Source: Dehalococcoidia bacterium (GTDB lineage Bacteria; Chloroflexota; Dehalococcoidia; Plut-88900). From it: a stretch of DNA of 64,000 nt. How positions within the stretch are numbered: the first letter of the stretch is position 1; each line of letters begins with the position of its first letter. Positions 10,849 through 62,078 of this stretch are shown here, piece after piece. A program made the position numbers and the translations under genes. The stretch is taken from the NCBI GenBank assembly GCA_965249275.1, contig CBDFLQ010000007.1, forward strand, positions 160,001 to 224,000. The letters run 5' to 3'. The notes under the pieces are model-generated. The model did no database searches, was not told the origin of the DNA, and saw nothing but the letters and a program-made list of their open reading frames with translations.

Positions 10849-11025
10849 AGGCGTAGGCCCACCTTTTCAGCGATTACTTGAATGCTCCCGGTGGCCGAGA
10901 CGCACCGCCCTCTCCCGTCATCCCACCCTCCCGAGCCGGTCGAAGATGCTGCAAGTGCTCATTTGGCGTGCGCCGAGGCGTGAATCCATCCCACCCCCAT
11001 CCTCTTCCCCGTAGGGGCAGGTCTC

Positions 11026-12703
11026 GGAGTCTGTTTCATAAGTTATAGGCATATGGAGTAGGCTATGGTGGACAAGGTAGACAGCGTCATAAGGAGGTGA
11101 CTGGGGATGCCACATCGACCGATGAACCGGGAACAGGTATGGATGTTGCCGCCGAGTCTCGACGAGATGCTGGGGGCCGGTCATTCTGCTCGATTTGTTG
11201 CTGAGTTCGTCGATGCCTTGGATGGAGAGGGCTGGGCAGGGATTGGGATTGATAGAGACGGGGAGGCGATGGGAGCGCCGGCCTACCATCCCCGTGCGCT
11301 GTTGGGTGTGTGGCTGTACGGCTTCATGACCGGTGTGCGATCGAGCCGCAAGCTGGAGGCGGCCTGCTGCGACCAGATACCGTACCTTTGGCTGACGGGC
11401 TGCCAGCGCCCGGACCACGTGACGTTGTGGCGGTTTTACAGCTCGCATCGGGATGGTATGAGGAAGCTGCTCAAGCGGACGGTGCAGACGGCGGTTAATA
11501 TGGACCTGGTGGAGATGGCGGTGCAGGCGGTGGACGGGACGAAGATTAGAGCGAATGCGGCAAAGGACCGGACCTACGACGCCGCTGGGTTGCGCCGTCT
11601 GTTGGGCCGTTTGGAAGGTGCGATAGACGAGTTGGAAGCGCAGAACGAGGCTGGGGAGGAGTCGGCTATCGGCCATCTGCCGGAGAGGTTGCAAGACCGC
11701 AAGGCATTGCGTGAGCGGGTGCGTGAGACGGTGCACAGACTTGCCGATCGGGATGGGCAAAAGCAGATCAACCTGACCGATCAGGACGCCCGGATGATGA
11801 AGACGCGACAGGGTTATGCGGTGGCCTACAACGCCCAGGCGATGGTCTCTACGGTAGCAGCGGCTGAGGGTAAAGCGCCCGGCATGCTGATCACGGCAGT
11901 TGATGTGGTGAACGACATATCCGACAGACGGCAACTGGGTGCGATGATGGAGAAGGCTGAGGAGACGTTGGGACAAAGGACGGAGATGACGTTGGCGGAT
12001 GCGGGCTATCACTCCGGGAACAATCTACAGGAGTGCGCCCTAAGAGGCCAACGGGTGGTGATGCCTGAGTCGCAGGACCGGGCGCTGCAGAGCCCGTATC
12101 ACAAAGACCGTTTCACCTACGACGAGGCGAGCGACAGCTACCGTTGCCCCGAGGGCCGGTTGCTGCGCTTCACTCGCACCAAGCGCACTCGCAACACAGC
12201 AATGCGGCTCTACCGGGCATCAGGGGCCGTGTGCCGGGCCTGCCCGGCCTTCGGGGTCTGTACGAAAGACAAGCGTCATGGGCGTGCCCTGGAGATCGGT
12301 TCCCACGACGCTGCGTTGCGTCGACACCGGGCCTGGATGTCCACCGAAGAAGCCAAGGGTGCGTATAAACAGAGAATGCAACTGGTAGAACCGGTCTTCG
12401 GTATCATCAAGGAGCAACAGCAAGCCCACAGGTTCCTGTTGCGTGGCTTAACCAACGTCTCGGCTGAATGGAGCCTGCTCGCCACAGCCTTCAACTTGCG
12501 CACCCTGTGGAGGATACGGCGAGCCGCAGCTACCTGGACAAAGCATTGGGTAGCCGAGGGCGCATACTCGGCCTATCGGGCGCTTCGGACGGCAATCGTG
12601 GGCACACTCAGCCCCCTGCTTCGATTAATGCGGCTCCGCCATCAGCCAGCCCGACCAAGCCAACTCCCCACGTCAAGCACAACCTACATCTGAAACAGAC
12701 TCC
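11026..12703 (+). mobile_element. IS1182-family insertion sequence
   Basis: Perfect 13-bp IRs GGAGTCTGTTTCA / TGAAACAGACTCC around the transposase. Confidence 0.88.
11107..12693 (+). CDS. IS1182-family transposase
   Basis: GAPAYHP, SSRKLE, VDGTKIRANA, TDQDARMM, LADAGY, VEPVFGIIK motifs. Confidence 0.93.
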   Translation: MPHRPMNREQVWMLPPSLDEMLGAGHSARFVAEFVDALDGEGWAGIGIDRDGEAMGAPAYHPRALLGVWLYGFMTGVRSSRKLEAACCDQIPYLWLTGCQRPDHVTLWRFYSSHRDGMRKLLKRTVQTAVNMDLVEMAVQAVDGTKIRANAAKDRTYDAAGLRRLLGRLEGAIDELEAQNEAGEESAIGHLPERLQDRKALRERVRETVHRLADRDGQKQINLTDQDARMMKTRQGYAVAYNAQAMVSTVAAAEGKAPGMLITAVDVVNDISDRRQLGAMMEKAEETLGQRTEMTLADAGYHSGNNLQECALRGQRVVMPESQDRALQSPYHKDRFTYDEASDSYRCPEGRLLRFTRTKRTRNTAMRLYRASGAVCRACPAFGVCTKDKRHGRALEIGSHDAALRRHRAWMSTEEAKGAYKQRMQLVEPVFGIIKEQQQAHRFLLRGLTNVSAEWSLLATAFNLRTLWRIRRAAATWTKHWVAEGAYSAYRALRTAIVGTLSPLLRLMRLRHQPARPSQLPTSSTTYI

Positions 12704-12864
12704 CCGTGCCTGCCCAGTCCCCACGCCCGCACACCTTGACCCGCAGAACACTGAATGCGGTAACCTCCGGGCCTGTCCGTCCCCTCTCCCTTAAAGGCCC
12801 AAAGGCGTCGTAGACCCGCCTTTAGCGGAAGAGGGGGCCAGGGGGAGAGGGTTCCCTATCCGCT

Positions 12865-13888: not shown

Positions 13889-14042
13889 CGGGGGCCAATC
13901 CCCTCTCCCTCGGCGGAAACTTTGTACAACTGTCATTCCGAGGCCCCGCGAGGAATCTGGGGCTGGGTCCCATCCCCTCTCCCTTGACGGGAGTCGTAGA
14001 TGCGCCGAGGCGTGAGGGCTAGGGCTAGGGTGAACTTCTCCC

Positions 14043-15074
14043 CTAAACCGTCACCTCCGCCGCCCGAAGCGCGGGCATTACCTCTTTCGCAAACATCTCC
14101 ATCGACGCCATCGCCTTGTCAGTCTCCAGCGCCCCGATGTCAAACTGGCAAAGCAGCGTGGTCACGTTCGCCTCGTCCCTGAATGCCCGAATCTTCCGCA
14201 AGCACTCCTCCGGCGTCCCCAGCATTAGCGTCGTCTCCAGCAACTCCTCGGCGGATGGTTCGTCGGGTAGCCGGTCAGAGTACGCCCGACCGTCGATAAT
14301 CCTTTCCCTCCCCGCCCGGAGCGACCCCGCTGTCCTGCGGACATACATCCCGTTTTCGAACTGCGCCGCCACCTCCTCGGGATCGTGGGAGACGTAGGTG
14401 TGCCGCAGGATCGTGAACTCCCTTGGCCCCCAGCCGTTGGCGTCGAGACCCTCCCGGAATATCCGGTTGTTGTTCTTCAGGTTGTCCATCGCCCCCGAGC
14501 AGATCGTGTGATAGCCCCGCTCCCCACTCAACTCCATGCTTGTCGGGCTGCTCCCCGCGTGCCAGAAGGGTGGATGGGGTTGCTGCAGGGGCCGGGGAAA
14601 CGTCCATGTCTTCGGAAACTGGTAGTGCTTCCCTTCGTGGGCAACGCCGTTTTCCGAAAGGCACCGGGTCACGATCTCCATGTACTCGTTGAACCGCTCG
14701 AAGTTCTCCTCGATAGGCACCCCGAACCGGTTGAATTCGTAGGGCTGATAACCTCTGCCAACCCCCAGGTCGAGTCGTCCATCCGTCAGCTGGTCCGCCA
14801 TCCCGATCTCCTCGGCCAGCCTGAGCGGGTTGTAGAAGGGCACCACCATCACCCCAATGCCGATACGGGCTTTCTTGGTGCGTTCCGCCAGCTTCACGGC
14901 CATCAGTAGTGGGTTGGGGCAGTAGCCGTAGCTGGAAAAGTGGTGCTCAGCCAGCCACACCGAGTCGAAGCCCAACTGGTCCGCAAATGCAGCCATCTCT
15001 ACAGTGCGGCCGTACACGTCTTCTGCTGGCTTCATCTCAGGAGACTGGTTCAAAAAGAAGGCCCCGAATTTCAT
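14043..15074 (-). CDS. LLM-class (luciferase-like) flavin-dependent oxidoreductase
   Basis: GFDSVWLAEHHF, PLRLAEE, GRLDLGVGRGY, PRPLQQPHPP, GTPEE motifs. Confidence 0.92.
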   Translation of the reverse strand: MKFGAFFLNQSPEMKPAEDVYGRTVEMAAFADQLGFDSVWLAEHHFSSYGYCPNPLLMAVKLAERTKKARIGIGVMVVPFYNPLRLAEEIGMADQLTDGRLDLGVGRGYQPYEFNRFGVPIEENFERFNEYMEIVTRCLSENGVAHEGKHYQFPKTWTFPRPLQQPHPPFWHAGSSPTSMELSGERGYHTICSGAMDNLKNNNRIFREGLDANGWGPREFTILRHTYVSHDPEEVAAQFENGMYVRRTAGSLRAGRERIIDGRAYSDRLPDEPSAEELLETTLMLGTPEECLRKIRAFRDEANVTTLLCQFDIGALETDKAMASMEMFAKEVMPALRAAEVTV

Positions 15075-15236
15075 ACATATTCTCCTTACGGCTTATCTGC
15101 GCTGGAACGCCAAACATTATAGTCATCCCCCTCTCCCCCTGTCGATTAGACATCCCCCTCCCCCTTTCCATAAGACCCTTGCATAACCCCAATGCCGGAC
15201 GGTGTCGGGAAGACTTATCCCCTCTCCCTTGATGGG

Positions 15237-15288
15237 TGTACAGACCGGGGACATGGGTTACAGTTGTTCGGGGAGATAGGTAACACAT
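15237..15288. mobile_element. Orphan IS481-type terminal end (remnant)
   Basis: TGTACAGACCGGGGACATGGGTTACA...AGATAGGTAACAC matches the ends of the IS481 at 59155-60455; followed within about 12 bp by the IS5. Confidence 0.75.
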
Positions 15289-15300
15289 TCTATCGACTTA

Positions 15301-16498
15301 GGGAAGCTCTGAACAACTCACTGTAAACCAGCTTAGGTTGTCTTGCATGGAGTTTTGGGGAGAGGTTGGGTCGTAATGTTGCGTCTCGGTGGCTTATTTG
15401 CATCCTATGTTCTGGCCTGTCAGGGCATCCAGTCACCATCGACCCGGATTTGACCACACTGCTCCTCCGTCACACCGCTAAGTGGCGCTCGGCCCTTACC
15501 AAGTTGGCCAGCCCCAGCAGCATCGCCACCCGTTGCGTGTTCTTGTACAAGCCCCTGTAGCGGACCTTGGCGTAGCCGAAGTGCCGTTTCACGTACAGGA
15601 ACGGATGCTCCACCTTAGCCCTGATGGATGATTTGCTCTTCTCCGCTAAGGCCTCGCAGCTCCCCGCCCTCAGTTTCCGACGCCGTCCAGGTCTCATCGC
15701 CACCCGCCACTCCACATCCATATCCCGATTCTCCGCCCGCTTCTCCACTCCCTGATATCCCGCATCTCCCCACACTCGCCTCTCCCCTCCATGCAGCAGC
15801 CGGTGCGCCTCCGTCACGTCATGCACGTTCGCAGCTGTCGTACTCATACTGTGCACCACCCCCGTGTCAGCGTCTGCACCAATGTGCACTTTCATACCGA
15901 AGTGCCACTCCTTCCCCTTCTTCACTTGGTGCATATCGGGGTCTCGCTCTCCAGCACGGTTCTTCGTAGACGCCGGCGCCTCGATGATGCTCGCATCCAC
16001 AATCGTACCCTCCCTGAGCCTCAGTCCCCGAGACTCCAGATGACGGTTGATCTCCTCGAACAGCCCCCGACCCAACTCCTGCTCTTCCAGCAGATGGCGG
16101 AAGTTCAGTATCGTAGTCTCGTCAGGCAAGGGGCCGGACAGCCTCAGACCTGCGAACCGCCTCACCGACTCCACCTCGTAGAGCATGTCCTCCATGCCCG
16201 GATCGCTCAGGTTGTAGAACAGCTGCACGCAGTGTATCCGCAGCATCACCGACAACTCGTAGGGCCTCCGTCCACGGCCCGCCCTGGAATAGTAGGGCCG
16301 GATTCGCTCCTCTAACTTTCCCCATGGAACCAGGTCCTCCATCCGCTCCAGAAATATCTCCCGGCGGGTCTTTCGCTTCTTGCCCTCGTATTCCAAGTCT
16401 GCAAATGTCGGCTGCTCCATCAAATCTCACCTCAGCTTTGGCCTTACTCTCCCTATCTTACCTATTACCTATGCCCTTAGACTTGTTCAGAGGTTTCC
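15301..16498 (-). mobile_element. IS5-family insertion sequence
   Basis: IRs GGGAAGCTCTGAACAA / TTGTTCAGAGGTTTCC (14/16 match); TA on both sides. Confidence 0.88.
15470..16423 (-). CDS. IS5-family transposase
   Basis: QPTFADLEY..KKRKTRRE, PDETTILNFRHLLE, IVDASII, WHFGMKVHIG, GDAGYQG, RAKVEHPF. Confidence 0.95.
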   Translation of the reverse strand: MMEQPTFADLEYEGKKRKTRREIFLERMEDLVPWGKLEERIRPYYSRAGRGRRPYELSVMLRIHCVQLFYNLSDPGMEDMLYEVESVRRFAGLRLSGPLPDETTILNFRHLLEEQELGRGLFEEINRHLESRGLRLREGTIVDASIIEAPASTKNRAGERDPDMHQVKKGKEWHFGMKVHIGADADTGVVHSMSTTAANVHDVTEAHRLLHGGERRVWGDAGYQGVEKRAENRDMDVEWRVAMRPGRRRKLRAGSCEALAEKSKSSIRAKVEHPFLYVKRHFGYAKVRYRGLYKNTQRVAMLLGLANLVRAERHLAV

Positions 16499-16939
16499 TA
16501 GATTCCTCGCGGGGCATCGGAATGACAGGGTTAAGGGGGTTGGAGTGGGGGAGGGGCGGACGCGACGGATCGGCAATGCGTGGACTGCCCCCGCTCGACC
16601 CTTCGACGGAGCTCAGGGTGAGCGGCCCTTCCCCAAGGATGGATTCACGCCTCGGCGCATCTTTGACCGGCTCTCTCGGCAGTCGGAATGGCGGAGGGGG
16701 AGGGAGTCCCGGCTCGGCGGGGGGGTGCGCCTTCAGGAGGGATGGATTCACGCCTTGGCGCATCTGCGACCTGCCTCCGCAGGAAAGACGGATGAGGGGT
16801 GGCAGTGTGGGGCGGTCCCCGCTCGCCCTTCGACCCGCCTCAGCGGACTTACAGCAAGCTCAGGGTGAGCGGCCCCTCACAGGGATGGATTCCGTCTCGG
16901 GGGCCGGAATGACGAGGTTGGAGAGGGAGGCGCGCTGGG

Positions 16940-19900
16940 TTAGGAGGGTTGTTGGGTGGGGCGGGGGGCGGCTGATACCATCTGGGCTGCGACCAGCTGG
17001 GCGTAGAGGCCGTTTCGTTCCATCAACTCGTCGTGGCTGCCCTCTTCGACTTTGCGACCACGGTCGAGGACTATCAACTTGTCGGCGTCTCGGACTGTGG
17101 AGAGCCGGTGGGCGATGATGACTGTGCTTCTGCCGGACATCAGGCGGTTGAGGGCCTGTCGCACCTGGTGCTCGCTGACGGCGTCGAGATGGGAGGTGGC
17201 TTCGTCGAGGATGAGGACTGGGGCGTTCTTTAAGAGGGCTCGGGCGATGGAGATGCGTTGGCGCTGACCGCCGGAGAGCTGCATTCCCCGCTCGCCGACC
17301 ATGGTGTCGTAGCCCTCAGGGAAAGAGGATACGAAGCCGTGAGCATTGGCCTGCTGGGCGGCTTCCTCGATCTCTTCCTGGGAAGCCCCGAATTTGCCCA
17401 AGGCGATGTTGTCCCCGATGCTGGCGTTGAAGAGATAGGTGTCCTGGGTGACGAAGGCGATGCTGTCTCGTAGGGGGTCGAGCCGGAATTCCTTCAGGTT
17501 GTGATTGCCCAGGGATACCTCGCCGGACTGAGGATCCCAAAAGCGCATTAGGAGATAGGCGCAGGTGCTCTTACCCGCCCCCGACCTTCCGACAAGGGCC
17601 ACGGTCTGCCCGGGCTCGATGGTGAAGCTGAGATCGGAGACGGCCTGGGGAAGGCCCGGACCGTAGGCGAAGGAAGTGCCTTCGAAGCGGACCAAGGGCG
17701 CTGTGGGCACTGCAACCTCTCCGGGTGCAGCTACGCCGGGACCGTCCTGGACGGACATAGGTTCATCGTGGACGGCGAAGACGCGGCGGCCTGCGGCAAG
17801 GGTCTCCATGAGGTCCTTGCCGGTGCGTGCGAGGTCTGATACGGGAGAGAAGGTGGAGAGGGCAAGGAGGGCGGCAAGGGGCAGGTCAGGACGGTCCATC
17901 CTGCCTTCCAAAACTAGCCATGCGCCCATTGCCAGTACCGCAAGGCCCCCAAGCCCCGTGATCGATTCTATGAAGGAGGTCTGCGACTCCTGGGCCTTCT
18001 TGAACTTGAGCTGGCTCCCTGCGAAGTCCCAACCCCGTTCTCGGATGTCGCCGGTCCTTGCGGGGCCCTGATCGAAGGCGGATATCTCCCGCATTCCCTG
18101 GATGTTATCGACCATCTGGGCATGGATGCCGCCGAGCTTGCTCAGCACTTCGTCGCCGAGACGTTCGTTGGTCTTCTGGGCGTAGAAGGGGCGGATTGCA
18201 ACGGCGAAGAGGAAAGGCAAAAGAACAATGGCGAGGGGCCAGGAGATGAGGGCAAGGGTGATGAGGACGGCAAGGGGCACGACAAAGGCCACGAAGGCCG
18301 GGCTGATGGTGTGGGCGAAGAAATACTCGATCTTCTCGATGTCTCCGCCGACGACACCTACGATGTCCCCAGACCTACGTTTAACCAGATAGGCGGGGGC
18401 TATGGCGTCCATCTTGCGGTACATGTCGATACGCATCTCGGCCAGGAGCCTGTAGGCGAGGTCGTGGGCGAGCCAGCCCTCGGCCCAAGTGAAGAATGCG
18501 GTGAGCGGGGCAAAGACCGCGAGGAGGATGAGGTATAGGGTCAGGTCTCCGCCCCGGAACACTTCGCCGACCAGCAACGCGCTGATCACGCCAAGTCCGA
18601 TTATGGAGCCGTGATGGGCAATGCCCAAGAGGAAAGTGACAGTCTGCTGTTTCCACCAGGGGACGATAAGTGTCATCAACCTCCGGAGGATCGTGAACGC
18701 GCCCATTGGATAAGAAGCCTCGAGAGCGGCAGGCGCAGGCAGGGGTTCCTCCTCGTGGGGTGGGGAGGCGAGGCCATCGACGGCGCTGGTGAGCTGGTCT
18801 ACAGTTGCGAGATTTGCCGGGCGGGAGGCAAACCCGGCGGTCTGCTGGTCGGCCATGAGCCGGGCGTAGATACCGTCGGCGGCGATAAGCTCGTCGTGGG
18901 AGCCTATTTCGACGAGATGGCTGTCTTCCAGGACGAGGATACGGTCGGCACCGACGATGCTGGAGAGGCGGTGGGCGATTATCAGGGTTGTGCGGCCTTG
19001 CATGAGCCGGTCCAGGGCTTCCTGGATTACGGCCTCGTTTTCGGCGTCCACGCTGGACAGGGCCTCGTCGAGGATAAGGATTGGGGCATCCTTCAGGAGG
19101 GCTCGAGCGATGGCGATGCGCTGCCGCTGGCCGCCCGAGAGGCGGATAGCCCTCTCACCAACATAGGTGTCGTAGCCCTGGGGGAGCTCGGAGATGAACT
19201 CGTGGGCATTGGCGGCTCTTGCGGCGGCTTCCAATTGTTCCTGGGTGGCGTCGCCCTTGCCGAACCTGAGGTTGTCGGCGACGGTGCCATGAAAGAGGTA
19301 GGTGTCCTGGGTGACGACCGCGATCTGCTCCCGGATTCGTTCGAGGGGAAGGTCTTTCAAGTCCTGTCCGCCGAGAAGAATGCGGCCCTTCTGGGGATCG
19401 AAGAAGCGATATGCCAGCCAGACGAGGGTCGATTTTCCTGCACCACTTGGCCCCGCCACACCTAGCTTTTCACCCTTGCCCAGGGTGAACGATACGTTCT
19501 CAAGGGCGTTGCCCCGGCCCTGATTGTAGCCGAAGGTAACGTTTTCGAAGCGGATTTCGGCGGCGAGGGGAGCGGTATTAGGGGTGTCGGGAGTGGGTGT
19601 GTTCCTGGGGCCTTCGATCTCTACGGGCTCTGCCATGAGGTTGAAGATGCTCTGCGCGGCTGCACTTGCGATCATGCCTTTGTGATAGAGCTGGGTCAGT
19701 TCCCGGAGAGGCCTGAAGACCTCGACGCCGAACATCATGACGATCAGGAGAGTTCGAATCTCCATGTCACCGGCGCTGACCCGGGCTGCTCCCACGCCGA
19801 GGGCGACGGCTGCACCGGCAGAGATTCCCAGCACGGTAACGCCGCCGGTGGCAATGTTGGCGGCGAGGACACCCATAGTGCTTCGATATAGGGCACGGGC

Positions 19901-20575
19901 CTTGTCCGCCAGCCGATCGCCGTGCCGGCCACTTTGGCCGTAGGCCTTCAGGGTGGCAAGACCCTGCACACCGTCCAGGAAGTCGGCGCCCAGGGAGCCG
20001 TAGGAGCGGTAGCGGTGCATGCTGCTCTTCTGGTTCCAGCTGTGGAAGACCGCCGGAGCGACGAGGGTGAAGAGGGCGAAGCCGAGGAAGATAAGAGCAA
20101 TGGGCAGGTCCAGGATGGCCATGAATACGAAGATGAGAATCGGGGCGACGGCGGCAATGATGATCTGGGGAAGGTATTGGCCGAAGAAGGTCTCCAGGCC
20201 CTCGACGCCATCGCCGAGGGTGAGGATCACGCCACCTGTGCGACGCTGGTCGAAGTGACCCGGGCCAAGGGCTAGGCAGTGCTGATAAAGATTCTCACGA
20301 ATCTTTATCTTGACGATGTTGGAAGTGTGATGAGCGTAGCTGTTCTGCAGGTATTGGAATACTCCTCGGACGCCGATGAGGATGGCGACGCCGATCATGG
20401 GAAAAGCAAGGGAGGAGTACTCGGCTTGTCCGCGAAAGACCCGGGCGATGACTATGCCGAAGATAGCGAGGCCGGCGACTCCAGCGCCAACGGCAATAAG
20501 CCCCAGCACTGTGGAAAGAAAGATACGGAGCCGAACGCCCTGCGTAAGCTGGAACAGTCTCAGATCGAAGTACAT
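16940..20575 (-). CDS. Single-chain double ABC transporter (TMD-NBD-TMD-NBD), CydD/CydC-like exporter fold
   Basis: Two Walker A motifs (GPSGAGKS, GRSGAGKS), two LSGGQRQR, two ILDEA; two TM blocks; ATG 20575 (MYFDLRL). Confidence 0.88.
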   Translation of the reverse strand: MYFDLRLFQLTQGVRLRIFLSTVLGLIAVGAGVAGLAIFGIVIARVFRGQAEYSSLAFPMIGVAILIGVRGVFQYLQNSYAHHTSNIVKIKIRENLYQHCLALGPGHFDQRRTGGVILTLGDGVEGLETFFGQYLPQIIIAAVAPILIFVFMAILDLPIALIFLGFALFTLVAPAVFHSWNQKSSMHRYRSYGSLGADFLDGVQGLATLKAYGQSGRHGDRLADKARALYRSTMGVLAANIATGGVTVLGISAGAAVALGVGAARVSAGDMEIRTLLIVMMFGVEVFRPLRELTQLYHKGMIASAAAQSIFNLMAEPVEIEGPRNTPTPDTPNTAPLAAEIRFENVTFGYNQGRGNALENVSFTLGKGEKLGVAGPSGAGKSTLVWLAYRFFDPQKGRILLGGQDLKDLPLERIREQIAVVTQDTYLFHGTVADNLRFGKGDATQEQLEAAARAANAHEFISELPQGYDTYVGERAIRLSGGQRQRIAIARALLKDAPILILDEALSSVDAENEAVIQEALDRLMQGRTTLIIAHRLSSIVGADRILVLEDSHLVEIGSHDELIAADGIYARLMADQQTAGFASRPANLATVDQLTSAVDGLASPPHEEEPLPAPAALEASYPMGAFTILRRLMTLIVPWWKQQTVTFLLGIAHHGSIIGLGVISALLVGEVFRGGDLTLYLILLAVFAPLTAFFTWAEGWLAHDLAYRLLAEMRIDMYRKMDAIAPAYLVKRRSGDIVGVVGGDIEKIEYFFAHTISPAFVAFVVPLAVLITLALISWPLAIVLLPFLFAVAIRPFYAQKTNERLGDEVLSKLGGIHAQMVDNIQGMREISAFDQGPARTGDIRERGWDFAGSQLKFKKAQESQTSFIESITGLGGLAVLAMGAWLVLEGRMDRPDLPLAALLALSTFSPVSDLARTGKDLMETLAAGRRVFAVHDEPMSVQDGPGVAAPGEVAVPTAPLVRFEGTSFAYGPGLPQAVSDLSFTIEPGQTVALVGRSGAGKSTCAYLLMRFWDPQSGEVSLGNHNLKEFRLDPLRDSIAFVTQDTYLFNASIGDNIALGKFGASQEEIEEAAQQANAHGFVSSFPEGYDTMVGERGMQLSGGQRQRISIARALLKNAPVLILDEATSHLDAVSEHQVRQALNRLMSGRSTVIIAHRLSTVRDADKLIVLDRGRKVEEGSHDELMERNGLYAQLVAAQMVSAAPRPTQQPS

Positions 20576-20647
20576 GAAGCCTCTAGGCCAGTTTGTCGTA
20601 GAAAGAGCCCTGGCGCAAGGGTTGCTAGCCGGGGCTCTGTTCGGTGG

Positions 20648-20676
20648 ATTATACAGTCGGGCACAGAATACGGCAA
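20648..20676 (-). promoter_or_regulatory. Putative sigma70 promoter of the ABC transporter
   Basis: Minus strand TTGCCG-N17-TATAAT; a divergent TTGACT-N17-TAGCGT lies at 20697-20725 (+). Confidence 0.6.
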
Positions 20677-20821
20677 ACGAGGAGCGGTGCGTTGTATTGA
20701 CTCCCCAAGTGGATTCGCTTAGCGTATCCGGCTGTATGTGGGGAGGAGCGACCAGCCGCTCGCCCCTATGGGTTGGAGGTTCACGGAACACAAGCAAGAA
20801 CGGAAAGGGTGCAAGAAGAAT

Positions 20822-21958
20822 ATGAAGGACTACATAGCCGTCGACGTGGACGGTCACATCATGGAGCCACCCGACCTTTTCGAAAATAACCTGGAACCGA
20901 AGTATCGGGACCGGGCCTATAAGCTCGTGTTGGACGACCAAGGGGTCGAGCACCCGGTTATGGACAACATATGGCTGGACGATACGAGGCCGGTGGGCAC
21001 AGTGTCGGTGTACGGCGCTGTTGACAAGCCCATGGAGGACTACCTGGCGGGGAAGGTGCACTACCGGGACTCGATGGTCCCGGGGGCATGGGTGCCGGAT
21101 GAAAGGCTCAAGGTGATGGACGAGGAGGGGATCGATATTGCGTTGTTCTACCCGTCGCTAGGTCTGGACTGGGAGAGCTCCAGCGACGACGCCGACCTCG
21201 TGGCGGCCCACTGCCGGGTGTACAACGACTGGCTGATCGACTTCTGCAGCACCGATCCCAGCCGACTAGTGCCGATAGCTCACGTGTCTTTCATGGATGT
21301 CGAGCAGGCGGTGGCGGAGACCAGGCGGGTGGCAGATCTTGGGGCGAAGGGACTGATGTTACTTGCGTTTCCGCCAAGAAAGGGTCAGCCGTATGGCGAG
21401 CCGGAGTTCGACCCGATATGGTCGGAAGCCGAAAGCCTCGGGCTGCCTGTCGGGGTACATGTTCACGGGGGCGGGACCCGATTTGGCGGTGATTATTTCT
21501 ACCCGCACCCCTGGAAGGCGTCTTGGTGGTGGTGGTTCGTCACGGCAGCGAAGTTTGTGGTGGACTCGATGACCTCGCTGTTCCAGGGAGGTCTTTTCGA
21601 CAGGTTCCCAAACCTTCAGGTGATCGCGTTGGAGGCAGGCTGCGGCTGGCTGGCCTACTGGCTGGAGCGGATGGACGAATATTTCGAAAGGTACGGCTTC
21701 GAGACGTCGATGCAGCTTAAGCCGAGCGAATACTTCAATCGACAATGCTGGATATCGATGGAGCCCAGCGAGAAGATTGGCCTTACGATGATGCAGCTTC
21801 TCGGGGCCGACCGGTTCCTCTGGGCTTCCGATTACCCCCACTCCGATGCAGAGATGGGGACCGTGGCACAACTGAAGAAGAACCTTGCCCCCCTTCCGGA
21901 TGCGGAGTTCCGAAAGATACTGGGGGAGAATGCGGTCAAGCTGTATCAGCTTGGGTGA
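20822..21958 (+). CDS. Amidohydrolase family protein (Amidohydro_2, ACMSD/LigW-like)
   Basis: DVDGHIMEP, MDEEGID, YNDW, PVGVH, LEAGCGW, WASDYPHSD. Confidence 0.9.
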   Translation: MKDYIAVDVDGHIMEPPDLFENNLEPKYRDRAYKLVLDDQGVEHPVMDNIWLDDTRPVGTVSVYGAVDKPMEDYLAGKVHYRDSMVPGAWVPDERLKVMDEEGIDIALFYPSLGLDWESSSDDADLVAAHCRVYNDWLIDFCSTDPSRLVPIAHVSFMDVEQAVAETRRVADLGAKGLMLLAFPPRKGQPYGEPEFDPIWSEAESLGLPVGVHVHGGGTRFGGDYFYPHPWKASWWWWFVTAAKFVVDSMTSLFQGGLFDRFPNLQVIALEAGCGWLAYWLERMDEYFERYGFETSMQLKPSEYFNRQCWISMEPSEKIGLTMMQLLGADRFLWASDYPHSDAEMGTVAQLKKNLAPLPDAEFRKILGENAVKLYQLG

Positions 21959-22464
21959 TTTTACATAATGCGTCGATGGGCGGTCTATGGCGAGGGTGGG
22001 ATGAGTGATTTTGTGAGGGACTTCGTTACATAAAGTGCGCGTTTGTCTTTTGGGATACATCCTCACTCTCTTCAGCGAGTCTTCGACCCTAGCCCTTTCC
22101 CGTCAAGAGAGCTTTGCACAACTACAGGTTGCCTCTGCTGTACTGTCCGGATCACGTAACCTCCACCCCCCGCTCATACTTCGAGAGCCTCAGCACGAGC
22201 GGCCCCGGCCCCACCGCGGGAGGTTAGGCAAAAATCTCATCAAGGGAGAGGGGATGGAACGCTCGCACATCATTCAGTTCTTGGGATCCCCTTCGAGAGC
22301 CTCAGGACAGGCTTCGACTTCGCTAACGCCACGGCGCATCTTCGACAGGGCGAGCGGAATACCCCGCCCCTGGGGATGGAGCCCGACTCGGGAGCAGAAA
22401 TGTCGGTTATGCAAGGGTCTCATACCGGAAACACAATGCGGGCTCATGCTGGAAAGGTGAATCG

Positions 22465-23385
22465 ATGCCAAAGATTGGACTGGTAGGGCTGGGAGTTATC
22501 GGGCGGATATACGCTGCCAACCTGACAAGGACTTTCGGGCCGATATATGTCTATGACAGCGTTCGGGAGCGGATGGCGGCAGTAGAGAAGCTGGGGGCTC
22601 TGGCGTCGGAGAGTGGGGCGGACTTGGCGAGGTTGTCGGAGGTGGTGTTGCTGGCGCTGCCAAACCCCGAAGCGGTGAGGGCGGCGGTAGATGGGAAGGA
22701 TGGCGTGTTAGAGGGGGCTCGGCCAGGGACAGTCATTGTGGACCTGAGCACCATTGACCCGAAGACTGCCATTGAGATGTATGCTTGGGCGAAGGAGCGG
22801 GGTGTTGACTACCTGGACTCTCCGATAAGCGGGGGGCAGCCAGGTGGGGCGGGCACCGACGGGGCGAAGGCGGCCAACGTAACCTTCATGGTGAGCGGGG
22901 ACCGAGGCGCATTCGAGAAGGCAAAGCCTGTGATGGAAGCGCTCGGCGAGAAGTTCTTCTTTCTGGGGGAGGCAGGGACGGGGACGAAGGTAAAGCTGCT
23001 GAGCAACTTCGTTAGTGGGATGGTCAACTTGATCTCGGCGGAAGCGTTTGCTCTCGGGGCGGCGGCGGGCATCGATGCGAAGACCCTGATGGACGTGTTT
23101 GACGAGACGGACGCCGACTGCTACTTCATGCAGAACTATGTCCGGCCGAGAATCGAGCGGGGTGATTTCGAGCCGGGCTTCTCGGTTGACCTGCAGTACA
23201 AGGACTTGAAGCTGACCAGCGAATGGAGCAGGGAGGAGGGGGTTCCCACCCCCATCAATGACCTGGGCGTGCAGCTATACCAGATGGCTCGGGCGGCGGG
23301 GCTGGGGCATAAGGACCTGGTGGAGTCGGTGAATTATTGGGCGCGGGTGTCGGGGGTGGAGTTGGTAACGGGTGACAGGGCTTGA
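22465..23385 (+). CDS. NAD(P)-dependent beta-hydroxyacid dehydrogenase (3-hydroxyisobutyrate DH family)
   Basis: IGLVGLGVIG, VDLSTI, LDSPISGG, KLLSN, KDL motifs. Confidence 0.9.
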   Translation: MPKIGLVGLGVIGRIYAANLTRTFGPIYVYDSVRERMAAVEKLGALASESGADLARLSEVVLLALPNPEAVRAAVDGKDGVLEGARPGTVIVDLSTIDPKTAIEMYAWAKERGVDYLDSPISGGQPGGAGTDGAKAANVTFMVSGDRGAFEKAKPVMEALGEKFFFLGEAGTGTKVKLLSNFVSGMVNLISAEAFALGAAAGIDAKTLMDVFDETDADCYFMQNYVRPRIERGDFEPGFSVDLQYKDLKLTSEWSREEGVPTPINDLGVQLYQMARAAGLGHKDLVESVNYWARVSGVELVTGDRA

Positions 23386-27308: not shown

Positions 27309-27316
27309 GGCCGGGC

Positions 27317-27946: not shown

Positions 27947-27980
27947 GGATTACTCCTGTGGGGGGTGGGGGTCAATGGGT

Positions 27981-29203: not shown

Positions 29204-29212
29204 CTATTTTTG

Positions 29213-48775: not shown

Positions 48776-50257
48776 TCAGTGGGCAGGTGTCATGGGTCCG
48801 GGGCCACCCTCCTCCCGCCTTGGCGGACTTTCAGCTAATTCTACATCAGCAGGGACGCGTTTCATAAAGAAAGCCGGGACCAAGGCGAGCAGTGACACGA
48901 CAAATGCTACGAGGAAGAAGCCTTCGAAGACGGAAAGGCCGGCCTCCGAGACACGGGAGACGTAGTCTGGGTCGGTGAAGGGGAGGTCGATGTCACGGAC
49001 GAGAATGTCGAATCGGTCGGTACCCCAGGCGGCGATAGCTGCAAGGCCGACGGTCATTCCCATGAGGCGCATAACGGTAAGAAGACCAGAGGCCGACCCT
49101 CGATGGGCAGAGGGGGAGGAGTCGACTGCGGCGGCGGCAATTGGTGCGATGACGAGGCCGAACCCGAACCCGCCGATTACGAGGTGTATGGTCAGCGCGG
49201 GGTCGGTGAGGGAGGTGTCCCAGCCCATCATCAAGAAGAAGGAGACGGCAGCCAGGGCAAGGCCAAGGGCTGTCGGGAGCCGGTAACCTAGTTTCGATAC
49301 CGCAAGGCCACCGAGTATTCCGCCGACGGGGATCGCAGCGGTGAACCGCACCAGCCTGAGGCCGCCCTCCAGGGGTTCTTTGCCCATTACCGTGTCGGTG
49401 ATGAGGGGAACGTTGACCATGGCGATTATAAGGCCGATCCCGACCAGGAAGTGGGTGAGGTTCGCACCGGAGAACGTGGCACGGCGAAACAGGGCCGGAG
49501 GGATGAGGGGATAAGGAATCCGACTTTCTCGCCAGATGAAACCGGCGGCGAGGACGACGGAAAGGACGATGCCGGCGGCGGCGAGGGGTGGGTAGTCGGG
49601 CCAACGGGATATGGACAGGGTAAACAGGACCAGGCTGAGCATGATCCATATGCCGCCCAGGTAGTCTACGGGGGTCTTCCGGCCCGTTCCTCCGGGCACC
49701 AGGAGGAGCAGGAGCAGGATGGAAGCGGCTACGAGGGGGACGTTAATCCAGAAGACCCATCGCCAGTCGAGGAAGTGGTCGAGGAGCGCGCCCCACATCG
49801 GCCCGATGACGCCGCCGAACTCCGCGGAGGCGCCGAGTAGGCCGAGGGCGGGGGCTCGGCGTCCAGGGGGGAACAGGTGGCCGATCATGGCGATAGTGAC
49901 GGGAATGACCGCACCTCCTCCGACAGCCTGGATAACCCGGTAGGCGACGAGGGGCCAGAGGTTATTGGCGATGGCGCAGAGCACGGAACCGACGGCGAAC
50001 AGGAGCATAGCTGAGACGTAGACGGTGCGGTGGCCGTAGACGTCGGAGAGCTTGCCGATGAGGGGCATGCCGCAGGTGTAGCCAAGCAGGTAACCGGTGA
50101 TGATCCAGGAGACCTGGCTAAGGTCGTCGACACCCAGACGGAAGTCACCCATGATGCTGGGTAGGATGGTGACGACGACTACCTGGTCGTCGGCGGCAAT
50201 GAATACGCCGAAGCAGGCGGCGAGGATGGGGATGTAGGGTGAGCGGGTGCGGATCAT
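48776..50257 (-). CDS. DHA2-type MFS transporter (Rv1410c/P55-like)
   Basis: 14-TM pattern; GKLSDVYGHR, RVIQAVGGGA, WRWVFWINVP. Confidence 0.85.
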   Translation of the reverse strand: MIRTRSPYIPILAACFGVFIAADDQVVVVTILPSIMGDFRLGVDDLSQVSWIITGYLLGYTCGMPLIGKLSDVYGHRTVYVSAMLLFAVGSVLCAIANNLWPLVAYRVIQAVGGGAVIPVTIAMIGHLFPPGRRAPALGLLGASAEFGGVIGPMWGALLDHFLDWRWVFWINVPLVAASILLLLLLVPGGTGRKTPVDYLGGIWIMLSLVLFTLSISRWPDYPPLAAAGIVLSVVLAAGFIWRESRIPYPLIPPALFRRATFSGANLTHFLVGIGLIIAMVNVPLITDTVMGKEPLEGGLRLVRFTAAIPVGGILGGLAVSKLGYRLPTALGLALAAVSFFLMMGWDTSLTDPALTIHLVIGGFGFGLVIAPIAAAAVDSSPSAHRGSASGLLTVMRLMGMTVGLAAIAAWGTDRFDILVRDIDLPFTDPDYVSRVSEAGLSVFEGFFLVAFVVSLLALVPAFFMKRVPADVELAESPPRREEGGPGPMTPAH

Positions 50258-51964: not shown

Positions 51965-52652
51965 GGCCCTTAATCTACCGCGTTTTTGCTCTTTCGGGGG
52001 TTGGTCATCTGGCGGAAGGCTAGTCTCCGGGGTCCGTTAAGAAGTTGAAATCGTGGCTAAAGATGAGGATGATTGGGTAGTTGGACATGGTTGACATCGG
52101 GAAGGTGTATGGGAATTCAGGGGGCTAGGTTGACAACAGTTATATGTGTCCTTATGTCTAGCGATTAGTGCTTTAAGTGTATATGGGAGACATAACAGAT
52201 ATAGTGCGAAGTGCTATAGGGGTGTGTTAGTGGTGGGGGGAGGGGGGGTTTAAGAAGTGGGGGAAAGGGGTTGTGTGGGTGGTGGGCTGATGCCTTAGAT
52301 CCCTCGCGGGGCCTCGGGATGACACGACTAAGGGGGCTGGGCAGTCACTGGGTGTCTAGGGGTCAGGGACAGCGGGAGCTATCAGGGAATGCCCCTGCTC
52401 TTGAGACCCTTTGACGGAGCTCAGGGCGAGCGGAACCCCCGCCCCTTCTGTTCTTGTGGTTTGGCGGACCCTGGATTCCCGATTACTCGGGAATTTCGGT
52501 TATTTGGAGGTGACGCCTCGGTGCACGGGCAAAGTACAACCTCCCCCCGCTCATACTTCGAGAGCCTCAGCACGAGCGGCCCCCCGGGATGGATTCCCGA
52601 TCGGGGTCGGGAATGACGGATATGGAGAGGGGGGAGGGGATAGGTACAGGTC

Positions 52653-56314: not shown

Positions 56315-56469
56315 GGGCACACTCAGCCGCCCAGTGGTGGATTCTCGACCCTAGTCCTTTTTGCGTCCCGCCCCCGCTCATACTTCGACGGGGCTCCCGC
56401 CTCGGCGGATCTACGACTGCACGAGCGGCCCCTAGGGCAACCATTGGCGTTGTTCTACGGGAATGGGGA

Positions 56470-60455: not shown

Positions 60456-60655
60456 CACCCTAGCCCTCTCCCATCGAGGGAGAGGGGATAGGACCTCCCA
60501 ACTGCCCCAGGGCAACCACGAGGGTTGTGTAACGGTATCATAGAGGGAGTTGGAGGTGTGAGTGGGCAAGTCCTAGATTCCTCGCGGAGCCTCGGAATGA
60601 CAGGGTAAGGGTGGGGCCTTGGGATGGGAGGGGGGCGAGAGGGAGGGAGGGGGGG

Positions 60656-61801
60656 CTAGGCGACAGCGGTGGTTGAGAGCTTGTCGACTATTAGCTTTCT
60701 GAGGTCGGGGAGGCCGGTTCCACGGAGGGCGGAGATGGCTACCATGTCCTCGGGCATGCCCCACCAGTCAGGGTCAGGGGCGCCGTTGGAGGGACTGCTT
60801 CCGTTGGTAGGGAAAAGGTCCATCTTGTTGAGGACGACTATGGCGGGCTTGTGAGACAGGTTGAGCTCTCCGAGGATTTTCTGAACTTCTTCGACGTGCT
60901 CAGGAGCGTTTGGGTGGACTACGTCGACGACGTGGAGGAGAAGGTCGGCGTCTGCAAGCTCTTCCAGGGTTGCGCGGAAGGCGGCTACCAGGATGGCGGG
61001 GAGCTTTTGGATGAAGCCGACGGTGTCGGTCAAGAGGACCTGACCTAGGGGATCGATGTGCCAGCGGCGGGTGACGGGATCGAGGGTGGCGAATAGCTTG
61101 TCGGCGGCGAGAACTCCGGCGCCGGTCAAGGTGTTTAACAGGGTGCTCTTGCCGGAGTTGGTGTAGCCTACGAGGGCTACGATTGGCAGGCCTCGCCTGC
61201 GCCTATCCTCCCGATAGAGGTTGCGGTGAGTCCTGACGTCCTCGATTTCCTGCTTGAGGCGATGGATCTTGTTTCTAACGAGGCGGCGGTCGGTCTCCAG
61301 CTGGGACTCGCCGGGGCCTCGGGTGCCGATTCCTCCGCCGAGCCGTTCGAGGTGCTTCCACTGGCCCGCGAGCCGCGGGAGGAGGTATTCGTGCTGAGCA
61401 AGCTCGACCTGGAGGCGGCCTTCTCGGGTGCGGGCTCGGGAGGCGAAAACGTCGAGGATGAGGGCTGTGCGGTCGATGACCTTTGTTTTGAGCCTATCTT
61501 CGAGGACTCTCTGTTGGGATGGGGTAAGCTCGTCGTCTACGATGACGGTCTGGTAGTGAAGCTCGCCTTTCAGGTTCTTAACTTCTTCCAGTCTGCCCTT
61601 GCCGAGATAGGTGTGGCTGGGTCTCGGGAGTCGCTGGGAGACGATGCCCACTACCTCTGCGCCGGCGCTTTTGGTGAGGAGGGCGAGCTCGTCGAGGGAG
61701 TCCTGGAGGCGCCAAAGGCTTTCGACGCCTCTGACGGAGGCCCCGATAAGGAGGGCCTTCTCGGGGGACGGGTAGGTCGAGATGGAGTTGCTACGGCCTA
61801 T
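60656..61801 (-). CDS. hflX: GTPase HflX (probable ATA start)
   Basis: IGTRGPGESQLETDRR, GYTNSGKST, LFATLDP, DTVGF, NKMD; conserved N-terminus extends upstream of the ORF-track start. Confidence 0.92.
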   Translation of the reverse strand: MGRSNSISTYPSPEKALLIGASVRGVESLWRLQDSLDELALLTKSAGAEVVGIVSQRLPRPSHTYLGKGRLEEVKNLKGELHYQTVIVDDELTPSQQRVLEDRLKTKVIDRTALILDVFASRARTREGRLQVELAQHEYLLPRLAGQWKHLERLGGGIGTRGPGESQLETDRRLVRNKIHRLKQEIEDVRTHRNLYREDRRRRGLPIVALVGYTNSGKSTLLNTLTGAGVLAADKLFATLDPVTRRWHIDPLGQVLLTDTVGFIQKLPAILVAAFRATLEELADADLLLHVVDVVHPNAPEHVEEVQKILGELNLSHKPAIVVLNKMDLFPTNGSSPSNGAPDPDWWGMPEDMVAISALRGTGLPDLRKLIVDKLSTTAVA

Positions 61802-62078
61802 GGGGACCTCCGGTTTTGGTTGCGCTTATGTTAACCAACCTTTGTCGTAGGACTTTGGCGTGAATGCTGTTTAGGATTAGATTCACCCTCACCCTAGCCC
61901 TCTCCCGTCAAGGGAGAGGGGATTGGACCACCGCCCCGCTCATACTTCGACGGGGCTCCCGCCTCGGCGGATCTATGACAGCACGAGCGGCCCCGGCCCC
62001 TTTGACATTCGGCATAGAAAGGTCTCATCAAGGGAGAGAGACATATACGCTGAGGGTTGGGATAAGAAAGTATAGAGG

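Follow-up and report, generated by a model that had tools for sequence, protein, structure and literature searches.

The 21-22-nt units described here are best read as genus-specific, REP-class miniature non-autonomous elements that would be inserted at the replication fork as single-stranded DNA, in replication-strand polarity; the probability of this reading is put at about 0.55. The units were studied in a window of 64,000 nt from an uncultured Dehalococcoidia bacterium (GCA_965249275.1, contig CBDFLQ010000007.1, forward strand, positions 160,001-224,000), in which an earlier note had reported hairpin micro-inserts interrupting several repeat families. Nine genomes of the genus (G000 to G008) were compared, of which G000 is an incomplete 7-contig assembly. 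The spread of REP-like repeats is poorly understood, and this genus offers a clean natural experiment, with eight single-contig sister genomes, a minimal unit, visible exact gains and losses, a simple target (CTC) and a near-absolute polarity beyond transcription. With 21 bases, the unit would be among the smallest apparently mobile pieces of DNA in a bacterium.

Each unit consists of a GC mini-hairpin of 12-13 nt followed by a 9-nt tail, which reads ATCTNCGAC in type 1 and ACTTNCAGC in type 2. There is a single 5' hairpin and an unstructured 3' tail, with neither paired subterminal hairpins nor MITE-type terminal inverted repeats in the unit. In 156 type-1 copies the positions of the 4-bp core stem are conserved at 87-100%, and the tail at 88-99% (ATCT) and 94-99% (CGAC); the tail is free at position 17 (A 28%, G 29%, T 37%, C 5%), as is the loop. 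The closing pair (positions 1/12) covaries, being C-G in 55 copies, T-A in 15, G-C in 4, A-T in 4 and A.C in 64, the last of these becoming G.T when read on the opposite strand. Conservation of stem and tail beside a variable loop and position 17 suggests that a defined unit is recognised. In reverse-strand reading the tail is GTCGNAGAT, and since its variable position yields GAAG, GTAG or GCAG, the unit is without a fixed GTAG or CGTC tag. Hairpins and tails are at times unequal in number, as in the H-T-T and H-H-T-T-T forms, which are not what pure nesting would predict.

The type-1 21-mer has nine matches in the window at two or fewer mismatches, against 0 expected from 100 shuffles. The genome-wide motif search that had been proposed as a check returned 80 matches at up to three mismatches (of which 25 are perfect and 24, 20 and 11 have one, two and three, respectively). 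Crude gene calls contain 5 of 80 type-1 signatures and the rest lie outside, so that length, copy number and mostly intergenic location are REP-like; a few of the genic matches with three mismatches are probably chance. The exact motif occurs in 6 of 401 Dehalococcoidia genomes, all of one genus, and within part of that genus the load is 3 to 97 copies per genome. Rfam gave no match at gathering score in the 64-kb window. The copies in the window, and the empty (uninterrupted) repeats used for reference, are listed below in window coordinates; those marked new were missed in the earlier note.

13993-14013, minus strand: type-1 unit (ACGCCTCGGCGC + ATCTACGAC) in REP-C, following ccctc, 2 nt upstream of the site occupied at 30437
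16647-16667, plus strand: type-1 unit in CGTC-type REP-A, following ggattc
16750-16770, plus strand: type-1 unit in a second REP-A subfamily, between ggattc and ctgcctccgcagga
16835-16855, plus strand: type-2 unit (CCGCCTCAGCGG + ACTTACAGC) in REP-B'', immediately 3' of ttcgac
22326-22346, plus strand: type-1 unit in REP-B'
23418-23440, plus strand: type-2 unit, 13-nt hairpin variant, in REP-B, following ttcga
23783-23803, plus strand: type-1 unit, three mismatches to the consensus, in REP-B'
23841-23883, plus strand: nested composite in REP-A, in the order hairpin, hairpin, tail 2, tail 1, where a type-1 unit encloses a type-2 unit (23853-23874); new
25310-25331, plus strand: T..A-closed variant unit (GCGCCTCGGCGAG + ACTACGGCC) in a REP-C-like repeat; new
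25343-25363, plus strand: type-1 unit with G..C-closed hairpin in the same REP-C-like repeat, following ccctctc
30437-30457, plus strand: type-1 unit in REP-C, following ccctctc
33030-33050, plus strand: type-1 unit, C..G form, in REP-B''
41362-41398, plus strand: empty REP-B with an 8-nt loop, uninterrupted-host reference
48815-48835, plus strand: type-2 unit in unique non-repeat DNA, following cctcctc, in frame within the C-terminal tail of ORF 48776-50257 (minus strand); new
52530-52585, plus strand: empty REP-B, filled by a type-1 unit in the G005 orthologue (event 6)
56397-56417, plus strand: type-1 unit, C..G form, in REP-B, following ggggctc
61884-61922 (approximate bounds), plus strand: empty REP-C, uninterrupted-host reference
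61959-61979, plus strand: type-1 unit, C..G form, in REP-B

All ten type-1 positions reported previously hold a copy, nine with at most two mismatches and the tenth (23783-23803) with three. Its two type-2 copies (16835-16855 and 23418-23440) were likewise confirmed, as were the empty repeats near 61882 (REP-C), 41361 (REP-B) and 16589 (REP-B''). The identical 21-mer does sit at positions offset by 2 nt in two REP-C copies, between ccctc and tcccgtcaaggg at 13993 and between ccctctc and ccgtcaaggg at 30437. The region of the window around 13993 has negative GC skew. Without the 16647-16667 unit, the ATTC/CGGC stem arm of REP-A is recreated (a slash marks the insertion point).

Units occupy at least eight contexts without homology to one another, which include two REP-C positions, a REP-C-like repeat, two REP-A subfamilies, REP-B/B'/B'', a ttattcag/ttggg repeat, gatgtcac/cctct, aaaggtc/tcatc and unique DNA. 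Host loop lengths rise in steps of +21 and +42 nt, with units nested in units: 67 of 89 REP-B loops are empty, 18 are at +21 nt and one at +42 nt, the corresponding numbers being 21 of 32, 10 and one for REP-B', and 58 of 84, 17 and two for REP-B''. The units interrupt and weaken the hairpins of their hosts. The empty REP-B at 41362-41398 is predicted to fold as an 11-bp hairpin on the C-rich strand only, and predicted DNA folds of filled repeats are not better than shuffles (z -1.15 to +1.22). Host repeats predate the units, as the module-poor genomes G006 and G008 and the sister genus (G011) are rich in empty hosts: 60 empty REP-B-family matches stand against 5 type-1 signatures in G006, and 52 against 3 in G008, and G011 has five REP-B matches and no units. 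Unit variants follow the host, with the C..G form in REP-B and REP-B'' and the A..C form in REP-C and REP-A, so most copies need not be independent insertions.

Orthologous sites were anchored by unique 600-nt flanks. Species at ~92-94% identity differ by the exact presence or absence of 21-22 nt or 43-44 nt at syntenic sites, and the filled/empty polymorphism that the earlier note had proposed to look for in sister genomes thus exists. The G003 orthologue of the repeat at 33030-33050, for example, is empty, the difference being exactly 21 nt. The G005 orthologue lacks the 25310-25331 unit together with 11 nt (33 nt in total). At 30437-30457 the entire REP-C and its unit are missing from the orthologous spacers of G002, G003, G004 and G005, and G001 has both. 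The 56397 site is filled in G003; in G002, G004 and G005 the repeat is lacking, and the G001 spacer alignment is without a filled REP-B. G003 carries a degenerate filled copy at the 61959 site. The unit at 13993-14013 is common to G000, G002, G003 and G005 (events 22/23). At least one gain is polarised: the unit at 48815-48835 is present in G000, G002, G003 and G005, and since all five outgroups (G001, G004, G006, G007 and G008) are empty, this is a true, derived insertion. The REP-B near 52568 (52530-52585) holds a type-1 unit in G005 only, and as G000 and also the outgroup G003 are empty, it was gained in G005. The direction of change is readable at a minority of polymorphic sites, because the branching of G000, G002 and G005 has a tree support of 75%.

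The alternative that survives best, a serious one that we nevertheless consider doubtful, involves no dedicated mobility. The units would be variable segments of a modular repeat superfamily, with indels produced between paralogues at forks, through short-tract gene conversion or through template switching, new contexts by microhomology-mediated template switches, and H-T-T and tandem forms by slippage. The host-specific variants fit this explanation, as do the lack of a transposase in the searches described below and the resemblance, read by eye from the sequences, of the REP-B 5' arm ACTTCGAC to both unit tails. Events 3 and 7 show excess change within the host repeat relative to the unique flanks (17/50 versus 23/162 and 4/50 versus 4/170, respectively), the pattern expected from replacement by a paralogue. 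In event 0 an entire composite of ~150 nt, unrelated hairpin stem included, is not the same in the orthologues and finds its match in a G000 paralogue at another place. Near 25304, the 33-nt indel gives the impression that one member of a tandem pair of homologous 33-nt units was gained or lost. Gene conversion does not, however, readily account for one 21-mer in at least eight contexts without flank homology, among them the unique DNA with five empty outgroups, nor for a junction microhomology of at most 1 nt (the shared C). Divergence beside the indel is not in excess in 12 of 14 filled/empty comparisons (overall mismatch 67/697 for the innermost 25 nt on each side versus 299/2323 further out), and the constraint on stem and tail suggests a defined unit.

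Filled repeats could instead be ancestral, with empty ones arising by precise, hairpin-stimulated loss of a 21-nt segment. At some sites the best tree does need a loss, namely at the REP-B beside 13993 (with a unit in G002 and G005 and none in G000 and G003; event 23) and at 22336, where the orthologues of 22326-22346 in G002 and G005 have an additional 22-nt type-2-like unit between hairpin and tail and G000 is without it (event 2). As a general explanation deletion is unlikely, given the two gains above and the many empty hosts in module-poor genomes and the sister genus. No direct repeats that might guide exact deletion were found flanking the units in aligned sites, and the same unit in unrelated contexts would be left unaccounted for.

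The 5' flank of the 156 type-1 copies is C at -1 in 82%, T at -2 in 79% and C at -3 in 70%; the trinucleotide is CTC in 73, TTC in 20 and CAC in 16, a count partly confounded because the host repeats are mutually related. The final base of the unit is C in 99%, in agreement with the description of inserts that usually follow C and end in C. Target duplication was absent from the orthologous filled/empty alignments, as had been claimed, and the claim that inserts share the polarity of their host holds for all units inside REP-B-family loops. Hosts lie on the G-rich versus the C-rich strand in ratios of 65:2 (REP-B), 51:3 (REP-B''), 23:1 (REP-B'), 26:2 (REP-C) and 38:6 (REP-A), and units in ratios of 18:0 (type 2) and 63:17 (type 1), with exceptions mostly where GC skew is near zero. 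Genes are spread evenly over the two strands (691 versus 661), and all four flanking-gene configurations contain repeats. The near-absolute strand polarity is independent of transcription direction and cannot be explained by transcription. Unit hairpins pair better on the C-rich strand, through G.T pairs, than on the strand proposed below as exposed. Such polarity relative to GC skew, together with constraint on stem and tail, might also mark a functional cis-element, that is, a site recognised by protein or RNA, such as a polar replication or segregation signal, selected in place and spreading as a by-product. This is improbable for a unit that breaks up and weakens host hairpins, is restricted to part of one genus at such variable copy number, comes and goes freely between close species, and has no Rfam match in the window.

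The catalyst is neither a Y1/RAYT nor a TnpB enzyme that Pfam would recognise. The Y1_Tnp profile (PF01797) matched none of 12 genomes of the family, eight single-contig ones among them, and 5 of 31 genomes of a class sample used as control; the TnpB profile matched none of five genomes. The Y2_Tnp (IS91) profile matched none of nine genomes, its control likewise matching nowhere. IS110-family matches were present in four of the nine genus genomes (nine in G002, ten in G003, seven in G004, one in G005) and did not track unit load: G007 has none and 46 type-1 signatures, and G000 has none and 61-80, its zero being weak evidence because the assembly is incomplete. Ends of six G003 copies were aligned as a candidate source of the unit and were without similarity to hairpin or tail. 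For IS110, the suggestion of a transposase whose ends would rebuild the 21-mer was not borne out. IS110 elements are not known to make long target duplications, and three of the six aligned G003 copies sit in REP-B'' loops, between GCCTCAG and (A)GGATGAGCGG, at most 2 nt from the type-1 site; even so, the 21-mer as the remnant of an IS excision, or as the joined ends of an IS that has lost its interior, is very improbable given the unrelated ends and the absence of matches in unit-rich genomes. Of the earlier proposal of an ultra-short mobile unit or recombinase scar, the first half is favoured by the exact syntenic indels, the outgroup-polarised insertion into unique DNA and the range of contexts, and the second half gains no support from the IS110 comparison.

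Under the preferred reading of the units as miniature REP-class elements, the proposed substrate would be a 4-5-bp GC hairpin with its conserved 9-nt tail. Insertion, and probably removal too, would be a precise single-strand-level event at replication forks, placed just 3' of (C)TC on the G-rich strand, which would be the lagging-strand template; every insertion would have the same polarity and leave no target duplication. The main targets would be older hairpin repeats (the REP-B family, REP-C and CGTC-type REP-A), in their exposed loops and arms. Units would also land inside other units, either where hairpin meets tail or within the hairpin loop, and now and then in unique DNA. Once a founding insertion had taken place, most copies would multiply along with the host repeat, which would explain the host-specific variants. 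The anatomy of the units, their contexts, the exact indels, at least one polarised gain, the strand polarity and the single-genus range are observed directly; both mobility and the fork-coupled single-strand mechanism with its cleavage points are what we infer from comparison of the sequences. More tentatively, the unit may be the substrate of a micro-transposon, moved by single-stranded cut-and-paste at forks by an unrecognised non-Y1 enzyme or a co-opted replication or repair enzyme, with a recursive unit-in-unit grammar. If so, no smaller mobile DNA unit would be on record for a cellular genome, and the unit would offer a tractable minimal system of hairpin-guided single-stranded transposition. 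Finding the catalyst would define the minimal substrate of hairpin-directed single-stranded insertion and could explain repeat proliferation without RAYTs. In Dehalococcoidia, moreover, alignment, MAG assembly and annotation are confounded by intergenic repeats that the units enlarge and scramble.

A cognate RAYT (Y1 HUH) gene is typical of GTAG REPs and not of CGTC REPs; we know of no transposase for whole super-families such as the CGTC REPs, nor of any IS200/IS605-type element near 21 nt, those known to us being far larger. The host REP-A is itself a CGTC-type REP (reverse strand CCGTCATTCCGGC..GCCGGAATCC). REPs and REPINs, in the sections of PMC3733652 consulted, are like the units in being small, high-copy, intergenic stem-loops with a conserved unpaired end tag and in being proposed as non-autonomous mobile DNA. 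The same sections describe REPs as tagged palindromes of 20-40 bp, some inserted within small palindromes, such as the GTAG-23 REP of the Chloroflexi Thermomicrobium roseum inside CCGSSCC(n3,4)GGSSCGG. Together with the Volvox carteri organelle palindromes of 11-77 nt that are reported to be inserted into one another (PMC2670323, in part), these show that nested palindromic repeats have already been described, so the units are not unprecedented and the earlier statement that no described element resembles them was too strong. The units share a covarying palindromic stem with REPs, but it is of 4-5 bp as against 8-9 bp or more in the published stems (same sections of PMC3733652). Their 9-nt tag is neither GTAG nor CGTC and no RAYT was found with them; they are singletons in strict replication-strand polarity and not inverted dimers. 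In this system it is the small hairpin that inserts, into larger repeats that serve as targets, and orthologous gains are directly documented. In contrast to MITEs, they are without terminal inverted repeats and target-site duplication. The Volvox palindromes are AT-rich, organellar and found in both orientations, whereas the units are GC-rich, bacterial and strictly polar, with a defined non-palindromic tail. With IS200/IS605 elements, as portions of PMC3971601 and PMC3333891 present them, the units share precise gain and loss without target duplication, an insertion point 3' of a short specific sequence, hairpin dependence and a replication-tied orientation, there attributed to the use of lagging-strand single-stranded DNA; they differ in having one hairpin and not two subterminal ones with guide sequences, and a Y1 transposase was undetected in 12 of 12 family genomes. 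Enterobacterial BIMEs, going by portions of PMC3333891, are mosaic assemblies that likewise combine small conserved motifs with hairpin repeats, but there the extra motifs lie between REPs, whereas here the units lie within host stems and loops and are recursively nested.

The unit consensus MCGCCTCGGCGSATCTWCGAC was matched nine times in the window at two or fewer mismatches, against zero expected from 100 dinucleotide-preserving shuffles. These nine, together with a copy at 23783-23803 that has three mismatches to the type-1 consensus, account for the ten type-1 sites listed in the earlier note, and the sequence on either side of every copy is that of a recognisable repeat, broken by the unit. 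Two copies of a second type (16835-16855 and 23418-23440) were borne out, and the three repeats cited as empty, that is lacking a unit, were found. Three further features were absent from that list:

23841-23883, nested composite of units
25310-25331, variant unit
48815-48835, type-2 unit in unique DNA

The genome under study (G000) comprises 2.9 Mb in 7 contigs, with the window at C7:160001-224000, and the nearest relatives of a large conserved protein come from MAGs titled Dehalococcoidia bacterium. The genome-wide motif search for which the note had asked returned 80 matches in G000 at three or fewer mismatches, 25 of them exact; a few three-mismatch matches in coding DNA look like chance.

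Each unit consists of a GC hairpin of 12-13 nt and, 3' of it, a 9-nt tail that reads ATCTNCGAC in type-1 units and ACTTNCAGC in type-2 units. Conservation was assessed on 156 type-1 copies, drawn from G000 and from three sister-genome segments of 480 kb each. Stem, ATCT and CGAC positions showed 87-100% conservation; the loop was unconstrained, as was tail position 17. Positions 1 and 12 covaried (C-G 55, T-A 15, G-C 4, A-T 4, A.C 64), and on the 5' side the unit was preceded by CTC in 73 copies, by TTC in 20 and by CAC in 16. Among other variants is a hairpin whose tail reads ATG(G/T)TCC; it was found nested in other units, at the point where their hairpin meets their tail. Compound forms were also seen, namely hairpin-hairpin-tail-tail, hairpin-tail-tail and hairpin-hairpin-tail-tail-tail, the last two of which are not wholly accounted for by simple nesting. 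A generic hairpin-plus-tail finder gave many chance coding matches for tail types 3 and 4, and counts rest on types 1 and 2 only. In a search for a long element with the hairpin at one end and the tail at the other, 3166 of 3427 matches were orphan hairpins, mostly coding noise, the pattern being too loose.

The larger hairpin repeats that host the units have the following flanks:

REP-B: ccgctcatacttcgagagcctc, then the unit, then agcacgagcgg
REP-B': attccgctcttgagacccttcgactcggctc, then the unit, then agggcgagcggaat
REP-B'': like design, with agggtgagcgg
REP-C: caccctcaccctagccctctc, then the unit, then ccatcgagggagagggg; second site 2 nt upstream
REP-A: ggatggattc, then the unit, then cggctcgggggccggaatgacgg

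The two REP-C insertion sites 2 nt apart, first noticed in the window, were seen again among the genome-wide flanks, and several rarer contexts occur in G000 besides these families. Type-2 units lie directly 3' of the TTCGA of the REP-B family. Removal of the unit from REP-A restores an 8-bp stem, and REP-A read on the opposite strand is a CGTC-tagged REP. Loop lengths in the REP-B family are quantised. REP-B loops measured 7-8 nt in 67 of 89 repeats, 28-29 nt in 18 and 50 nt in one, the remaining three being 23, 23 and 94 nt. REP-B' loops were empty in 21 of 32 cases, with 10 at +21 and one at +42, and REP-B'' loops were empty in 58 of 84, with 17 at +21, two at +42 and the others of odd lengths or containing inverted-repeat pairs. 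All REP-B-family loop inserts were oriented as their host, as had been claimed from the window. Unit variants are host-specific: REP-B and REP-B'' carry the C..G form, REP-C and REP-A the A..C form.

The units are confined to one genus among the genomes searched. With one mismatch allowed, a 20-nt core was found in seven of 31 sampled genomes, all in the genus (G003 97, G000 61, G002 53, G005 44, G004 23, G001 11, G007 7). The exact 19-nt core occurred in six of 401 Dehalococcoidia genomes, again all within the genus, and was absent from all 392 genomes searched in 221 other genera. A looser 14-nt signature gave 46 matches in G007, five in G006 and three in G008. Empty REP-B-family repeats are common in these same three genomes (86, 60 and 52, respectively) and present in the sister-genus genome G011 (5), which indicates that the hosts are older than the unit expansion.

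Besides G000 the genus is represented by eight genomes, of which six are single contigs, and syntenic DNA was compared from five of the eight. In a tree built on syntenic genes (6.5 kb), G004 and G001 branch outermost and G003 next, leaving a group of G000, G002 and G005 whose branching is incompletely resolved (75% support). The cleanest case of gain is the type-2 unit at 48815-48835, present in G000, G002, G003 and G005 and absent from G001, G004, G006, G007 and G008. The insertion is derived, measures exactly 21 nt and follows ..CCTC. It lies in frame, as 7 codons, near the end of a predicted, membrane-protein-like ORF of 493 aa (48776-50257, minus strand), in a C-terminal tail that shows no conservation among the outgroups.

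Exact unit-sized presence and absence was likewise found at syntenic repeats, the filled/empty polymorphism that the note had proposed to look for. G000 has a unit in its REP-B'' at 33030 where the G003 orthologue has none, a difference of exactly 21 nt, and REP-B at ~52568 is filled in G005 and empty in G000 and G003. At 22326, G002 and G005 carry an additional nested 22-nt unit, and 33 nt including the variant at 25310-25331 are missing in G005. Whole repeats with their units also come and go as blocks, for example at 30437 and 56397. Across ~400 kb of four-way synteny, with unique 600-nt anchors required, some fifteen unit-sized indels (21-22 or 43-44 nt) were found in repeats and elsewhere, and in two cases a whole REP-A with its unit was present in one genome only. 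Public sequencing was also consulted: 24 runs were listed (Logan contigs), and four, from four studies, were compared over window positions 13900-33200. Their contigs, short and from mixed relatives, gave no clean within-population 21-nt polymorphism; in two of the runs they skip 30347-30489, the whole REP-C with its unit, and no conclusion is based on these runs.

In the main rival explanation, paralogous repeats would exchange units by conversion or template switching, with no dedicated enzyme. It accounts for some of the events: events 3 and 7 show excess mismatch near the indel, as paralogue replacement would give, and in event 0 the entire composite differs between orthologues. Across 14 filled/empty comparisons, mismatches within 25 nt of the indel numbered 67 of 697 positions versus 299 of 2323 further out, and thus gave no general sign that host repeats had been replaced by a paralogue. 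The rival leaves unexplained the many unrelated insertion contexts and the insertion in unique DNA. At event 11, a 43-nt insert in G003, the outgroup spacers have diverged too far for an alignment over the insertion point. A pure deletion model, with filled repeats ancestral, is poorly supported against outgroups that are empty at 48815-48835 and the common empty hosts of unit-poor genomes.

Several other repeats and paralogues were observed besides the units:

33075-33232, MITE-like 158-nt element with 31-nt inverted arms, 87% complementary
27981-32843, minus strand, four tandem paralogous ORFs of 376-379 aa, separated by spacers

The MITE-like element is absent from the orthologous spacer of G003, and a similar arm flanks a transposase-bearing insert in that genome. 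Spacers of the ORF array are 8-9 nt or repeat-swollen in sister species, and similar arrays of 376-aa paralogues lie at C5:545-551 kb. A composite repeat with a perfect ~16-bp hairpin and conserved flanks occurs in G000 at C7:~624.4-624.6 kb and C5:546.6-547.25 kb; its stem is wholly different from that of the G002 and G005 orthologues, but common to a paralogue elsewhere in G000.

A catalyst and a source element were sought. Y1_Tnp (PF01797; Y1/RAYT) had no match in 12 family genomes (G000 and 11 others) with positive controls, TnpB (PF07282) none in five genomes, and Y2_Tnp (PF04986) none in nine, its control likewise being without any match. RVT_1 was rejected as catalyst, being present in G003, G006 and G008 but absent from G000 and G002. 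No gene flanked by inverted units was found in two inspected wrong-strand regions, which held only repeat composites and paralogous 376-aa ORFs, and Rfam, where a search for the motif had been suggested, gave no match at gathering thresholds over the whole window. IS110 elements occur in four of nine genus genomes with no correlation with unit load, and G007 has no IS110 match yet many units. Three of six aligned IS110-family copies in G003 (L121-L126) sit in REP-B'' at GCCTCAG, then the IS, then (A)GGATGAGCGG, and their insertion point in REP-B'' loops is at most 2 nt from the type-1 site. The other three sit at look-alike sites, so these elements target this repeat family. The IS110-family ends in G003 are unrelated to the 21-mer; with this distribution they tell against IS110 as source and leave the IS-footprint model, raised earlier as a recombinase scar, poorly supported.

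Strand polarity, scored against 20-kb local GC skew, was common to all repeat families and both unit types, each favouring the G-rich strand (G-rich to C-rich: REP-B 65:2, REP-B'' 51:3, REP-B' 23:1, REP-C 26:2, REP-A 38:6; type 2 18:0, type 1 63:17). Most exceptions lie in regions of near-zero skew, and the sole minus-strand copy in the window, at 13993, falls in its negative-skew part. Crude gene calls showed no strand bias (691 vs 661), and REP-B-family repeats occupy all four flanking-gene configurations (29, 46, 45 and 30); polarity thus follows replication or skew, not transcription. The comparable orientation bias of IS200/IS605 elements is attributed, in two published reports, to use of lagging-strand single-stranded DNA (PMC3971601, PMC3333891). 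An empty REP-B forms an 11-bp hairpin on the C-rich strand only, where A.C becomes G.T, and there folds better than most shuffles (z -1.71), the only such case; predicted DNA folds of filled repeats were indistinguishable from shuffles. The A.C closing pair of the unit, which favours C-rich-strand pairing, points the same way, so the active strand may be either one. G000 combines strong skew (tens of kb at about +-0.15) with a lack of gene-strand bias in the crude calls, which is unusual. From ~16800 to the window end (C7:176.9-247 kb) the segment is inverted relative to G005 and G003, either a recent inversion or a MAG misjoin, and the skew flips at the same breakpoints. A replication origin at the ~16.8-kb flip was rejected, the flip coinciding with the inversion breakpoint against single-contig G005 and G003.

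The evidence best supports a reading of the units as REP-class micro-elements. Insertion, and probably removal, would be precise, of single polarity and 3' of (C)TC, and would most plausibly take place on single strands at replication forks; inserted units would then be carried along as host repeats multiply, which would account for the host-specific variants. The earlier proposal of an ultra-short non-autonomous mobile unit is supported by the exact gains and losses and the insertion in unique DNA, but the searches above turned up no enzyme that might move it.

In the literature searched no description of such elements in Dehalococcoidia was found, and for nested miniature REP elements only known REP/RAYT papers; the statement that nothing like them is described is overstated, as nested palindromic repeats have been reported. 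One study describes REPs as 20-40-bp tagged palindromes, CGTC REPs without a known transposase, and REPs inserted in small palindromes, including in the Chloroflexi member T. roseum (PMC3733652); another describes palindromes in Volvox organelles, 11-77 nt long, that have inserted within each other (PMC2670323). The E. coli RAYT reportedly requires a GTAG tag and a stem mismatch and cuts either side of the REP (PMC3333891). Relative to these systems, what is new is the absence of a recognisable Y1 enzyme, the very small size of a unit whose defined tail is not palindromic, the way units nest recursively, the strict replication-strand polarity common to all repeat families, and direct evidence of recent unit gains.
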